From a virus, in IMG/VR virus record IMGVR_UViG_3300037245_001320, positions 90,019-154,018 of that record: a stretch of 64,000 bases of DNA. The stretch is one strand, 5' to 3'. The notes under the pieces are model-generated. The model did no database searches, was not told the DNA's origin, and saw nothing but the letters and a program-made list of their open reading frames with translations. Both the position numbers and the translations under genes were made by a program. Below are positions 43,000 to 64,000 of the stretch, in pieces (position 1 is the stretch's first letter; the number at the start of each line of letters is the position of its first letter).

Positions 43000-45900
43000 T
43001 TACATAGCTATGTAATTTTCTTCGTAATCAGCTAAGTTCATTCTCTTCTCTTCCGGCTTTGATCCCCAGTTACCTTCAACATAGGTATCACAGTCCAATA
43101 CAAAATCAAGTGTAATCCAGTCGAACAGGGGATGGTTGTCTGTTCCTTTAACTAAAGCTAAAGTAATTATCTTATCAACCAATTCCTCCTCCGAAGGTTC
43201 TACTGAAACACAAACACTATCATGTACCTGCCCCACCAACTTAGATTTAAGATTTAATCTTTCAAACTCTTTTTGCACTATGTTCAAACCACATAATAGT
43301 TTCTCAAAGCTTCCGCCCTGGATAGAGTAACTTGAAGCAGTTCGTCTGTTGTGGACTGATCTTAAAACATGTCCCACAGGTGTTTGTAAATAACCTTGTT
43401 TAACAAATAATTTCCAAATATCCTGTTTATACTGGTAGTAGTCTTTGAATCGTACTTGCCAAAATTGGTACTCAGCTTCTTTAACTATTTCTTGGAAACT
43501 ATCTTTGTTGGCTATTCCATGAGCTTGGAAATGAGCACTCAACCAATCCTTCTGCTCAGTTGTAAAACTCATTATAGCTTCCCATATTGATTCAGTAATT
43601 CCTATATAATTGGAACCAAAGAACGCGGGGAAAACAAATAGCTTACCAGCTTGTCTTAATCTTTTCCACATACCTTCTGGTGCTTCTGTTAAAACACCAT
43701 CAATAGTATAAGCAGACAGATTATTTCTGTCATCAATCTTAAAAATATCCACGGCTGTATCACCATGTAAATCAGTCGAGCTATCAGAATTATAACGTAA
43801 TAATTCCATATCCCCACTTACAATAGATGCACAATAATTTTCAGCAGCGGAAAAGTCATATTCCTTCCACACTTGTCCTTTAAAAGGACCCATAAACGAT
43901 CTTGCTAATTTGGATAAACGGGGATCGTGCTTAATATTATTCTGAAAATTGTTAGAATTTGAGCTGCTCCTCCATGATAAAGTTAAACCTAATGGGAAAT
44001 TACATTTAACAACTCCATCATCTCCGCTCTCCCTAATATAGCCTACTAAGTAGGTTTGGACAACTTTAGCTAAAGCTTTCTTCTCTAAAATCAACTTACA
44101 CATTGGGGTATTTAACTTTTCTAGTGCTGCTTTATCTGTTGAGTAAGCTCCCGAAGCAGTCTTCTTTCCTGGAGGATGTTTAAGAATATCAAAGAAAAGG
44201 TGAGCCAACTGTTGCCCTGAGTTATAGTTCAGGGGTGTCTTTCCATCTTTGCCTCCATCCCATTGTTTAGCTTCATCACAATTTAAGATCTTACCATGCA
44301 GATCAGCAACCTCTTTGTCCAATTCCTCAATATTAGCTTGTAGCTTAACTTGATCAGTTTGTAAACCATTGTAAGTCATCTTAGCCATGGTAATTGCTCC
44401 TTGAGTACTAAACCTCACAGCATCCAACTCTCTCTTATTCATAAGCATAGGTATTACTTTCTTAACTAATTTTGTAGTGTATATACTATCAAGGCAGTTA
44501 TATTCCAGAATTTCATCTTCTGTTAGTGTACCTTTCTTTACTTCCTTCTCTCTTCTTTTATTCTCCTCTTCTATTTCTTTAGAATCTCCTTCTAAGGGAT
44601 AGAGTAAGCCAGCCTCTAAAAGTTTACCTCTAGCCAAGGCTTCTGGTAATTTATTGATTGTTTGATTACTTTTAAAGTACTTTGTGTCTTTATCAGCATC
44701 TCTCATTTTAAAGAAAGGTTTACACTTATCCCCATAACCAGCGTTTCCGAAGTGAAAATAGGTCTGAATTTTTAAATTCGATGCCATCCCACGGTGGTCC
44801 AGACCATGACATAATAGCTGTGTATCAATGTATATATTGTCCATCCAAACATCCCACTTACCTTTATAGGCTGATATTTCATACTGTACATTGTGTGCTA
44901 CTTTCATAACCTTTGGATCAGCCATGAGTTTAGCAGATGCTTTTACTATGTCTTCATCTTGAGTCATGTATGCTACATTTCTTTTTCCATCGGATAAACT
45001 CATACATAAAATCTCTGCTTCTTTCCTCTGAAACTTTAAAGAACTTGCCTCAACATCGTTAGAAACACATTTAACTGTGTGGAAGTATTTTATAGCATCT
45101 AAGATTTCTTGTTTATCTTTTAAGATCTCAATTAGATCATAAGCATCATCAATAGGAACTGGTTTATTCCAATGCTCCTTAGCTGATTTTAAAGCTTTAA
45201 TGAATCTGTCCCATTTAACCTTGAAATCATCACTTCTTAATACCTTATTATCAACTAAAGATATCTCTCGACTAACTGCCTCATCATAATATCTGGGTAT
45301 CTGTTGTCCTTGTTTTACTTTCTCTCTTCTCCACTCTTTATATCTACCTTGTCTATTCTTTAATTCCCATATGAGATCACGGGGGGAAAAAGACACTATT
45401 AAATTTGCCATAAATTCCTGATCTGGGATCACGTAAGATTCGTAGATATCCCATGAATTCGTGATGGAAAGCTTATGGGAAAGTAAAGTCGAAGTGGCTG
45501 AGTACCCAAATGCTAATATCACATTCACCTTCAACCTCTTAATATCATCATGAAGAATTTGAGCACAAGCTTTTCTAGCTATTCCCGAGCTTTTCTTATC
45601 CAACCCATCTTTATAACCTCTCACCGAATTTATTATGAATACATCCTTGTTAATATCTAATCCAGCTTCTTTCAAAGCACTTTTTAATAATTTAAACTCC
45701 TGCCCTATTATAGGTTTTCCTGACTCTAACCCATTGCTTGTCAACTCGTCACAAACTATTAAGATCCCTTTCTCACCTTTACCCCAAACAGGCATTGAGG
45801 GACTTCCTCCAATCTCAACCCACTTCCACTCTACATGTTCCTTCTGAGTAATCACCTCTTTCCCATTTTCATCAGTTTCTTTAATCTCAGGCAAACACTT

Positions 45901-46074
45901 CTCTTCATCTCTTACTTTAATCTTAGCATGAGAACATCTTCCGCAATCGTTACACCCATAGACCTTCTTCTTATTTGGTGCTTTTAATAGTGCTCTCTTC
46001 CCTTTAACTTGTGTTAAATCTTCAATCATATCCATGGGGGGACTGAAGAAGCCTCCTTTATTTCCTTCTATCAT
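43000..46074 (-). CDS. polA: Family A DNA polymerase with N-terminal UDG-like domain and 3'-5' exonuclease
   Basis: DVEAS, HNVQYE and YNCLD exonuclease motifs; DFSAAE (A), R..GK..VF..FFG (B), VHDS (C); C..C..C plus a UDG-like N-terminus as in SPO1-type polymerases. Confidence 0.9.
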   Translation of the reverse strand: MIEGNKGGFFSPPMDMIEDLTQVKGKRALLKAPNKKKVYGCNDCGRCSHAKIKVRDEEKCLPEIKETDENGKEVITQKEHVEWKWVEIGGSPSMPVWGKGEKGILIVCDELTSNGLESGKPIIGQEFKLLKSALKEAGLDINKDVFIINSVRGYKDGLDKKSSGIARKACAQILHDDIKRLKVNVILAFGYSATSTLLSHKLSITNSWDIYESYVIPDQEFMANLIVSFSPRDLIWELKNRQGRYKEWRREKVKQGQQIPRYYDEAVSREISLVDNKVLRSDDFKVKWDRFIKALKSAKEHWNKPVPIDDAYDLIEILKDKQEILDAIKYFHTVKCVSNDVEASSLKFQRKEAEILCMSLSDGKRNVAYMTQDEDIVKASAKLMADPKVMKVAHNVQYEISAYKGKWDVWMDNIYIDTQLLCHGLDHRGMASNLKIQTYFHFGNAGYGDKCKPFFKMRDADKDTKYFKSNQTINKLPEALARGKLLEAGLLYPLEGDSKEIEEENKRREKEVKKGTLTEDEILEYNCLDSIYTTKLVKKVIPMLMNKRELDAVRFSTQGAITMAKMTYNGLQTDQVKLQANIEELDKEVADLHGKILNCDEAKQWDGGKDGKTPLNYNSGQQLAHLFFDILKHPPGKKTASGAYSTDKAALEKLNTPMCKLILEKKALAKVVQTYLVGYIRESGDDGVVKCNFPLGLTLSWRSSSNSNNFQNNIKHDPRLSKLARSFMGPFKGQVWKEYDFSAAENYCASIVSGDMELLRYNSDSSTDLHGDTAVDIFKIDDRNNLSAYTIDGVLTEAPEGMWKRLRQAGKLFVFPAFFGSNYIGITESIWEAIMSFTTEQKDWLSAHFQAHGIANKDSFQEIVKEAEYQFWQVRFKDYYQYKQDIWKLFVKQGYLQTPVGHVLRSVHNRRTASSYSIQGGSFEKLLCGLNIVQKEFERLNLKSKLVGQVHDSVCVSVEPSEEELVDKIITLALVKGTDNHPLFDWITLDFVLDCDTYVEGNWGSKPEEKRMNLADYEENYIAM

Positions 46075-62310: not shown

Positions 62311-62769
62311 TCATCTAAACTCCACCGCTGTTATATTCAAATTAGGTGTTACTCGTTCTATAATACCTTTAATCTTTTCCCAATCTCCACCTGCATATCC
62401 TGAACCAATAAAAGGAATTCCCATCTTAGTTTGAGATAAAGTATCCCACTCATTTAATCTAGTGAACACTTTCTCTATTGCATCATAATCTACAGAAGAC
62501 TTTCCACCATACCTGTACTGAGTATAAGCATTGATAATAATTTGAGAATATTCTCTCTCGTATAAAATAACATGAGAACAATTACCTAATTTATTAATAT
62601 CACCCTTCTTGGTTTTCAAATCTGCTTTATATGCCTCTGGATATTGTTCTTTTATTTGTTTTGCTATTCCTGCTCCCATTGTATTAAAACAGTTACACCC
62701 ATGTATAATTGTATCAAATTGTTTTAATCTAAAATATTCTAGTAGGTTTCCTCTTATTGTTTCCATCAC
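62311..62769 (-). CDS. Macrodomain (ADP-ribose hydrolase-like) protein
   Basis: GNL, HGCNCF.TMGAGIA, NAYTQ, P.IGSG.AGGDW. Confidence 0.9.
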   Translation of the reverse strand: MMETIRGNLLEYFRLKQFDTIIHGCNCFNTMGAGIAKQIKEQYPEAYKADLKTKKGDINKLGNCSHVILYEREYSQIIINAYTQYRYGGKSSVDYDAIEKVFTRLNEWDTLSQTKMGIPFIGSGYAGGDWEKIKGIIERVTPNLNITAVEFR

Positions 62770-63581
62770 TTAAATACCTCAACCAAGCGTACTCCAAACT
62801 TCTCATCAACTAATACCACTTCTCCTAGCCCAATCTGTTTTCCATCCACAAATACAGGGACAGCATCTCCGACATTCCTATCTAATTCTATAATCGAACC
62901 TTCTCCGAGTTCTCCTACATCACCTATACTTATCTCTGCTTTTCCTAGACTAGCTTCTATATTTGTTTTTATAGCATCTTTATCAAATTTCATATTATTC
63001 TCCTTTAATTCATTTTTGTGTAACCATTTACTTAATTCTTTAGCTGGTATACAGATAGTAAATAACCCCTCTAGTTCTTCAGAACATATCTCAAAAGTAA
63101 ATAAGCAAATCATCTCATGCCTTTCCTCATAAAATCTATATTCTGTGGTGTAATCTTTATGTCCTGCTGTACAACCTCCTAAATTAGGGAGGTTTTTGAA
63201 TAGATTATCTTGTGGTATGTCTGCTAAGTTCTTATCTAGTTCTATAATAATATACTTTAATCTATCATTAAGAGCGCGGTATACTCTAGAAACGGAAGGT
63301 ATACTTCTTGTGAACTCCTCATAGGTTAATTGATCTATAGAGCATAAGTTACATTGGTATTTTTCTCCTAAAAGCTCTTGTATCTCCATATGTATTAAGA
63401 ATGAGTATCTCTGGAAAATGTCATTTAGTTTTGTTAAATCTTTCTTGGTTAATATATCTGGTCTTTGAAAATCATATATTTTTATATTCTTTCTTTGTGT
63501 TACTTCTTGTTCTCCTGTATCTTCTTCTGATATTACAGTTAATAATTGATCTATGTCATCTTGACTTAATACTTCTGTCAT
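62766..63581 (-). CDS. fliM: FliM-FliN chimeric flagellar switch protein
   Basis: MTEVLSQDDIDQLL (CheY-binding), IKIYDF.RPD, DQLTYEEF.RSIP; C-terminal SpoA domain GSIIELD..GEVVLVDEKFGVR. Confidence 0.88.
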   Translation of the reverse strand: MTEVLSQDDIDQLLTVISEEDTGEQEVTQRKNIKIYDFQRPDILTKKDLTKLNDIFQRYSFLIHMEIQELLGEKYQCNLCSIDQLTYEEFTRSIPSVSRVYRALNDRLKYIIIELDKNLADIPQDNLFKNLPNLGGCTAGHKDYTTEYRFYEERHEMICLFTFEICSEELEGLFTICIPAKELSKWLHKNELKENNMKFDKDAIKTNIEASLGKAEISIGDVGELGEGSIIELDRNVGDAVPVFVDGKQIGLGEVVLVDEKFGVRLVEVFK

Positions 63582-64000
63582 TGTTCTTCCTCCACTAATT
63601 TTAAACTATCTTCAAATACCTCTACAGTATCTCCCCATTCATTTCCGAAGGGATCAGTCCATTTATGACTAATCATAATACTATCTGTCTTATCTGTCAC
63701 TCTTGGACCTTTTACCTCATCTCCTGAGAAGTAATGATCTCCATTCCATTTAACTCTACCTGTATATATTTCTTTAGTTATTTCTATCATAAAGTTCCTT
63801 TACTAACCTTTCATGTAAATCATACAATTTTTCATTATGTTCTTTAACATATTTTACAACAGTTTCTTTATCTATTTTGTGTTTACTTAAAATAACTCTT
63901 TCAAAATCATCATATATCAGATCAATTTTTCCCATAACCCCTTTATACTTTCCATAGGAGTCTTTGTCGTCTCTAAACATCTTCTTTGCTTCATATCTAC

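Follow-up and report, generated by a model that had tools for sequence, protein, structure and literature searches.

A phage gene for a shortened FliM-FliN flagellar switch hybrid that keeps a CheY-docking peptide and a FliN-type SpoA domain and lacks the FliG-contact segment

The switch proteins of the flagellum are seen as parts of the motor that occur strictly in cells and are tied to operons. Here we describe a switch-protein gene carried by a phage. The gene is located at 62766..63581 (stop codon included) on the minus strand of a 64,000-nucleotide stretch, hereafter the window, which is the final 64 kb (positions 90,019 to 154,018) of the linear, 154,018-bp IMG/VR virus record IMGVR_UViG_3300037245_001320; the record is about 90% complete as assessed with CheckV. 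All the features of the window for which coordinates are given below are on the same strand. The open reading frame (ORF) is ATG-initiated and codes for a protein of 271 residues, P0001, in which, as judged from the ORF list, the translation, Pfam and NCBIfam matches and an AlphaFold2 (AF2) model, a FliM-type N-terminal part is joined to a FliN-type C-terminal domain. P0001 is a variant of known switch proteins in a new setting, that of a phage.

Spirochaete FliM (TIGR01397/PF02154), which is encoded in motA-motB-fliL-fliM-fliY operons, shares with P0001 the motifs LSQxEIDQLL, KIYDFxRPD and SVDQLTYEEFxRSIP, a middle domain with a CheC-like fold and a C-terminal SpoA domain. P0001, however, is shorter than spirochaete FliM (271 against about 343 residues), and the FliG-binding segment with helix alpha3 and the GGXG loop is deleted; moreover, its SpoA domain belongs to the FliN/FliY type, an acidic tail is missing from its C-terminus, and the protein is phage-encoded, with no flagellar neighbours. 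FliY of Bacillus and Thermotoga follows the same three-part logic as P0001, with an N-terminal CheY-binding peptide, a CheC-like middle domain and a FliN-like C-terminus. The middle domain of FliY does not bind FliG, and its SpoA domain is FliN-like (PMC7355467). The fliY gene of T. maritima may, in addition, be translated from an internal start into a FliN-like product (PMC4832279). Unlike that of FliY, the middle domain of P0001 is FliM-derived by sequence (PF02154) and lacks the CheC phosphatase motif. SctQ proteins of type III secretion systems (Spa33, SpaO, YscQ) are made at full length and, through internal initiation, as the shorter SctQ-C; P0001 likewise has an in-frame Shine-Dalgarno (SD)-like motif and a Met codon before SpoA, which form a candidate start. 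P0001 differs from SctQ in that it has one SpoA domain rather than a tandem, carries a CheY-docking peptide and matches the SctQ model weakly, and its internal product is hypothetical. The SctQ-like SpoA1-SpoA2 arrangement is found in longer phage relatives of P0001 (414-465 residues). Lastly, a Salmonella mutant makes, like P0001, a single FliM-FliN chain; according to the account of Kihara et al. (1996) given in PMC4832279, this fusion forms limited, fragmented cytoplasmic rings (C-rings) and needs extra free FliN. The Salmonella fusion joins complete FliM to complete FliN, whereas P0001 lacks both FliM's own SpoA domain and the FliG-binding loop. The mutant is a precedent for thinking that such fusions touch the ring and depend on free FliN.

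P0001 belongs to a wider family. An exhaustive HMMER search returned 236 cluster representatives at E<=1e-10. P0001 is the shortest form of the FliM-FliN hybrid and groups with the other short forms (271-302 residues; P0001-P0004, P0121 and P0122), a clade that had support of 96/90 in a tree of SpoA domains. At least five divergent homologues are intact ORFs of the same short architecture, with 35-53% identity. Middle forms (313-337 residues) also end in a FliN-type SpoA domain, and in the long forms (414-465 residues) a complete FliM, with its own degenerate SpoA1, is fused to a FliN-type SpoA2. No relative was found when IMG/VR was scanned with the single P0001 sequence, and five loci were found when the scan was made with an alignment. 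PHROGs held no family for the hybrid protein, and full-text literature searches on phage or viral flagellar switch proteins returned no study. The only GenBank match to 'phage fliM', that of Microcystis phage MaAM05, was rejected as a precedent because the viral nature of this type of record is disputed; according to a 2026 comment, the related PhiMa05 record holds a bacterial motA-motB-fliL-fliM-fliY cluster and no coherent phage modules (PMC13623518).

The SpoA domain of P0001 (residues 204-269; 62775..62972) was delimited with Pfam and characterized by its PDB sequence match, its position in the tree and its predicted homodimer. The Pfam family FliMN_C (PF01052) matched residues 204-269 with 66.2 bits (cut-off 23.8), and the NCBIfam model fliN (TIGR02480) matched residues 204-270 with 74.8 bits, below its equivalog cut-off of 84.05. 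The FliY model NF005995 covered residues 204-269 only (65 bits against a cut-off of 218), and the SctQ model TIGR02551 gave a weak match over the SpoA part only (40 bits against a cut-off of 100.8). When compared with the C-termini of spirochaete FliY/FliN, represented by fliY/fliN genes of 350-410 residues directly downstream of fliM in 80 genome loci, the domain scored 40-47 bits; when compared with FliM's own SpoA domain, it scored 15-18 bits. In the SpoA tree, a branch with 98/98 support split the spirochaete FliM domains from a group containing FliY/FliN and every hybrid. The best PDB sequence match was T. maritima FliN (1o6a; E 1.2e-11), with 42% identity in a Foldseek alignment, and the GEVV(L/V)V...FGVR core of FliN-type SpoA domains is kept. 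An iterated profile search detected one SpoA domain in P0001 and two in the long relatives, and a word-indexed search with the C-terminal 82 residues had a single fragment, P0121, as its sole return. Judged by sequence, the SpoA domain of P0001 is of the FliN/FliY type and not of the FliM type, and the term FliM-FliN chimera, used in a preliminary description of the window that was made from the letters alone, is therefore correct and denotes more than the usual architecture of FliM.

SpoA domains of the FliN type function as intertwined dimers. For the isolated domain of P0001 (residues 194-271), a homodimer was predicted with an ipSAE interface score of 0.51, the best control scoring 0.00; over the runs, contact agreement was at least 94% and the predicted local distance difference test (pLDDT) score of the partner at least 78. 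Of 30 solved homo-pairs, 20 reach the mark used, as does one of 23 single chains. As FliN dimers have already been solved, this pass is a measure of likeness and not of binding.

At the other end of the protein, residues 1-20 (63522..63581) make up a FliM N-terminal peptide for the docking of phosphorylated CheY (CheY-P), as indicated by identity to spirochaete FliM and by a modelled helix. The sequence LSQDDIDQLL (residues 5-14) matches the LSQxEIDxLL peptide of FliM, and in the AF2 model the peptide forms a helix spanning residues 7-21. We compared P0001 with 15 spirochaete FliM proteins. Mean identity was 76% over residues 1-20 and 10% in the helix that follows; it was 69% over residues 33-45, 65% over residues 81-100, 10% over residues 46-80 and 8% over both residues 131-155 and residues 181-203. 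This mosaic fits selection on the CheY-docking peptide. The likeness of the N-terminus to spirochaete FliM, which had been proposed before, was thus borne out, and the motifs quoted at that time are all present in P0001. Pfam FliM (PF02154) matched residues 36-128 with 45.2 bits (cut-off 27), covering only positions 1-94 of the 192 of the profile, and NCBIfam fliM (TIGR01397) matched residues 3-122 with 90.8 bits, below the equivalog cut-off of 219.6. By these matches P0001 is a domain-level member of FliM and not an equivalog. An hhalign comparison of the short forms with spirochaete FliM aligned 268 columns with a probability of 99.95%. The best 80 genome matches to the FliM part were almost all from Spirochaetota; because the genome candidates had been pre-selected with two peptide patterns, this is a lead to the host only. 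In the ESM Atlas, the nearest clusters carry the labels Uroviricota and Spirochaetota, which come from very few records. Our best guess is that the host is a spirochaete.

The middle domain is where P0001 departs from FliM. This CheC-like domain (residues 46-190; 63012..63446), identified by PF02154 and Foldseek and modelled with a pLDDT above 90 over most of its length, has about 145 residues in P0001 and about 187 in spirochaete FliM, so that it is indeed shortened, as the preliminary description had it. The hhalign comparison placed the main deletion after residue 116 (approximate deletion point at residues 116/117; 63231..63236), where about 22 residues, corresponding to helix alpha3 and the GGXG loop of FliM, are gone. 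No GGXG motif is present in any of the short forms. The GGXG loop of FliM is a conserved contact with the EHPQR motif of FliG (reviewed in PMC7355467). Since the alpha3/GGXG segment is deleted, P0001 has most probably lost the canonical coupling to FliG. The fold itself is predicted with confidence: the AF2 model of P0001 had a mean pLDDT of 86.2, and its Foldseek matches were Salmonella FliM in cryo-EM structures of the C-ring, isolated FliM middle domains (4gc8, 4fhr and 2hp7), the middle domain of FliY (4hyn) and FliN. We also considered whether the domain could be a CheC-type phosphatase. The motif D/S-x3-E-x2-N is absent from P0001 and P0122, and the single matches in P0002 and P0004 are chance-like and outside the corresponding helices; no CheC-family model matched the middle domain of P0001 at E<=1. 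As the active-site motif is missing from the corresponding helices of the short forms, this reading was rejected.

Between the middle domain and SpoA, the gene contains a candidate second start. An in-frame ATG at 62993-62991, the codon for Met197, is preceded by AAAGGAGAATAAT, with a GGAG (within AAAGGAG; 63000..63003) located 6 nt upstream. This motif was read from the sequence and is conserved in homologues. The candidate internal ORF (Met197-Lys271; 62766..62993) would code for a free, FliN-like SpoA module of 75 residues, a hypothetical product for which we rely on the recurrence of the Met and the SD-like motif in the family. The start of the hybrid gene itself has a GGAGG 7 nt upstream of its ATG (63589..63593; sequence read). 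In the phage, GGAG or GAGG occurs 4-11 nt upstream of 60% of 208 predicted starts and of 6.3% of 637 internal in-frame ATG codons; for 5-mer SD motifs the figures are 50% and 3.0%. The equivalent Met codon of other short forms is preceded by GAGGAG in L002, by AAGGAG in L096 and by a weaker AAGGA in L094. All five long forms examined as DNA have GGAG or GAGG about 9 nt upstream of a Met codon at the FliM/FliN junction, and in two of the five the motif depends on an ACG codon for Thr. Altogether, an SD-like motif and a Met at the junction were found in nine family members examined as DNA, one of the motifs being weak. At the level of protein, a Met within 16 residues before the FliN-type SpoA domain was found in 37/46 hybrids with two SpoA domains and 39/59 hybrids with one, against 29/137 canonical FliM and 23/70 FliY proteins and an expectation by chance of about 35%. 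Inheritance of the arrangement from canonical fliY was rejected: only seven of 65 spirochaete fliY genes have a Met near the junction position, and none of the four upstream stretches examined among these seven has a GGAG/GAGG core. This is the pattern that a retained fliN start site would show. The making of two products by a single SpoA gene has precedents in SctQ/Spa33, T. maritima FliY and E. coli FliN (PMC4832279), and the enrichment of the junction Met suggests that SctQ-like tandem translation may be family-wide in natural FliM-FliN fusions. The ATG at 62993, the motif upstream, resembling a ribosome-binding site, and the frame of 75 residues are all as first described, and conservation in the hybrids, with absence from canonical fliY, adds to them; the product itself is only suggested. 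We regard its synthesis from the internal start as a nearly even call, leaning slightly to the negative.

P0001 has a single SpoA domain, its CheY-docking peptide is intact and the loop for coupling to FliG is missing; on the most economical reading, it would be a decoy, or poison, switch subunit. With modest confidence, we infer that P0001 would bind CheY-P and host FliN/FliY while being uncoupled from FliG. In a motile host, probably a spirochaete, SpoA may pair with host FliN/FliY, with itself or with the internally translated fragment of 75 residues. This pairing would put P0001 at the base of the C-ring, or make it compete for the base and for the FliN pool. The N-terminal peptide would capture CheY-P, and the crippled middle domain would be unable to pass signal or structure to FliG. 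The net effect would be that of a dominant-negative subunit, blunting chemotactic switching, assembly of the C-ring or export. The preliminary description had suggested a one-gene mimic of the C-ring; in its full form this is ruled out, because the FliG-binding segment is deleted and there is one SpoA domain and not two. If confirmed, the retention under selection of a docking peptide and a FliN-type ring-base domain, with the FliG loop discarded, would amount to a dominant-negative design, found in nature, that is directed against the motor switch, and the control of motility and chemotaxis would join the host functions that phages manipulate. With P0001, motor biologists would also have a minimal construct of natural origin in which the binding of CheY, the pairing with FliN and the coupling to FliG could be told apart, and the one-gene, two-products logic of SctQ would be extended to the flagellar side.

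Several observations weigh against a decoy that is assembled in this manner. The short form P0122 has a degraded N-terminal peptide, with 45% identity over residues 1-20, and CheY docking may thus not be essential across the short-form clade. The hybrid gene is absent from the helicase region of three related phages and is therefore dispensable. Upstream of Met197, the linker has many Lys and Glu residues, which makes purine-rich, SD-like strings likelier by chance, and as the family members are related, the recurrences of the junction motif are not phylogenetically independent. Lastly, FliG and a complete FliM-FliN occur together in some other phages, which could mean supply and not sabotage.

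According to this last possibility, the phage would give the host C-ring a working switch subunit, so as to keep or retune motility and chemotaxis, and would replace FliM/FliY turned over after host shut-off. We consider it unlikely for P0001, even though fuller sets of switch genes do occur on virus-classified contigs. The long forms are found on contigs that are phage-like or classified as viral (L007/L006, L008, identical with L011, and the 329-kb record L012), often directly after fliG; fliG is next to a complete FliM-FliN fusion in L007:1622-3933, L008:9300-11272 and L012:4692-7296, and L009:6001-8580 has separate fliM, fliN and fliG genes. The 236-kb, jumbo-phage-like contig L003 has a fusion without an adjacent full-length fliG, and a downstream ORF of 116 residues is a weak match to FliG (E 5e-4). 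With the phage loci of this kind (L003, L007, L008/L011, L012 and L013), P0001 shares the theme of a FliM N-terminus combined with a FliN-type SpoA domain, and the good conservation of its CheY-docking peptide and of its SpoA domain would also suit a working subunit. P0001, however, is the shortest of these proteins, has no FliG partner and comes from a mid-sized, 154-kb phage of a different lineage. Moreover, the alpha3/GGXG segment for contact with FliG is deleted in all the short forms, the middle domain is shorter by about 42 residues, nothing is left of FliM's own SpoA, and the record has no FliG. A subunit without coupling to FliG is unlikely to support torque or switching. The place where the short forms arise was not resolved in a tree built from the N-terminal and middle parts, because their branches are long; a descent of the short forms from the long fused ones is therefore not claimed.

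Two of the loci found in this survey have further peculiarities. The FliG of L008 has only 229 residues and lacks the N-terminal domain, and a methyl-accepting chemotaxis protein (MCP)-signal protein is encoded about 10 kb downstream. In L010:5986-7124, on a 306-kb contig from IMG/VR, the FliM-like gene is split into an N-terminal ORF of 225 residues and an overlapping ORF of 155 residues with a FliN-type SpoA domain; a frameshift, a programmed shift or a true two-gene version could lie behind the split.

A broader proposal would bring these forms and the decoy together. Possibly, phages that infect motile bacteria (probably spirochaetes) evolved their own C-ring proteins as a graded series, from FliG with a full fusion down to the minimal form of 271 residues. 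The gene for this form would give two products, as in SctQ: a full-length chain and a free SpoA module of 75 residues, the latter made from the conserved internal start. Jointly, the two would act as a self-contained decoy complex for CheY-P, which would be inserted into the base of the host C-ring or would cap it. We put this forward as a tentative suggestion, less probable than the decoy function itself. If true, the complex would stand for a class of phage takeover factor that was not known before, one directed at the motility switch.

The main target of the protein could also be export and not chemotactic switching. FliN-type SpoA domains are a docking site for the export ATPase complex FliH-FliI, and SpoA, either free or within full-length P0001, might titrate FliH and so halt flagellar type III export, thereby saving energy or preventing the formation of new flagella. 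The conserved core of the FliN-type SpoA domain, which is the best-conserved part among the short forms (51-76% identity), and the plausibility of a free 75-residue product speak for such a blocker of export and assembly. This explanation does not account for the fact that the CheY-docking peptide is strongly conserved, nor for the folded FliM middle domain that the protein has kept, and we hold it to be improbable.

We give a similarly low probability to the idea that the FliM and FliN folds have been recruited as a scaffold for a non-flagellar function of the phage, such as a regulatory or assembly adaptor. The surface of the middle domain is highly diverged, with 8-10% identity in several segments, and stand-alone hybrids do exist in non-flagellar bacterial contexts, next to MoxR-AAA/VWA genes in L014 and to TPR genes in L005. 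The parts of P0001 nearest to canonical FliM, however, are the CheY-docking peptide and the adjacent motifs, for which we know of no role outside the motor. The L014 locus (L014:1179-4478), on a contig binned as Anaerobutyricum sp., codes for a FliM-N/FliN-C hybrid of 324 residues without a GGXG loop, directly upstream of a MoxR-type AAA ATPase gene and a VWA/DUF2201 metallopeptidase-like gene and with no flagellar genes in view; the same protein of 324 residues occurs on contigs of up to 579 kb. At L005:8983-11272, in the metagenome-assembled genome of Treponema sp. R8-4-B8, fliG and a FliM-FliN fusion gene are found amid genes for TPR proteins, glutamine synthetase and a resolvase, in surroundings that look bacterial and non-flagellar. 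The pair represents an island or else a second switch module that stands on its own.

The hybrid gene belongs to the phage and is neither an assembly chimera nor a host insertion, in agreement with what had been thought at the outset. We base this on its GC content, its overlaps with both neighbours and helicase synteny in two other contigs. The gene has 32.0% GC, and 22.8% at third codon positions (GC3), in a phage genome of 32.7% GC; the sampled spirochaete fliM loci are mostly at 43-58% GC, with one at 35%, and are thus unlike the gene and its phage-like composition. Its start overlaps the stop of an upstream ORF of 70 residues by 4 nt (ATGA), and its stop overlaps the GTG start of a downstream Macro-domain gene by 4 nt (GTGA). 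In contig L002, P0002 (271 residues, 53% identical to P0001) is directly followed by a helicase orthologue with 52% identity to that of our record, and P0003 is likewise upstream of the orthologous helicase in L096; these two homologues are 50-53% identical to P0001. The gene was not found within 6 kb of the helicase in L097, L098 and L099, three phages of the same helicase lineage, one of which has a Macro gene of 77% identity directly upstream of its helicase. Since two relatives carry a homologue beside the helicase and three lack one there, we conclude that the hybrid gene is accessory. A decaying remnant of captured host fliM-fliY DNA, or a chimeric assembly join, would be in keeping with a position 437 bp from the end of the linear record and with the absence from the three related phages, but is largely refuted, and very improbable, in view of the intact, divergent homologues of the same short architecture, the helicase synteny, a GC and GC3 that fit the phage and not the sampled spirochaete loci, the confident predicted fold and the start and stop overlaps with neighbouring phage genes.

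Around the hybrid gene are phage replication genes, coding for a DnaB-like helicase (phrog_19), an HNH nuclease, an N6/N4 DNA methylase, a fusion of PolA with uracil-DNA glycosylase (UDG) and the Macro-domain protein (phrog_335), and the hybrid gene is part of this early/middle replication module. It appears to sit inside a long string of co-directional genes, and a scan for promoters and terminators gave no signal above shuffled expectation around it. That no other flagellar genes are nearby, as first noted, holds for the entire 154,018-bp record, in which searches for FliG_C, FliG_M, a second SpoA, response-regulator and MCP-signal domains gave no match. The Macro-domain protein (62311-62769), whose gene is translationally coupled to that of the FliM-FliN hybrid, matches phrog_335, annotated as 'phosphatase', and Macro genes recur close to switch genes or to the helicase in L008, L097 and L098. 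The family-A DNA polymerase (43000-46074; 1024 residues) has an N-terminal domain of the uracil-DNA-glycosylase superfamily and a 3'-5' exonuclease domain, and the same UDG-polymerase fusion was also found in the related phage contig L099.

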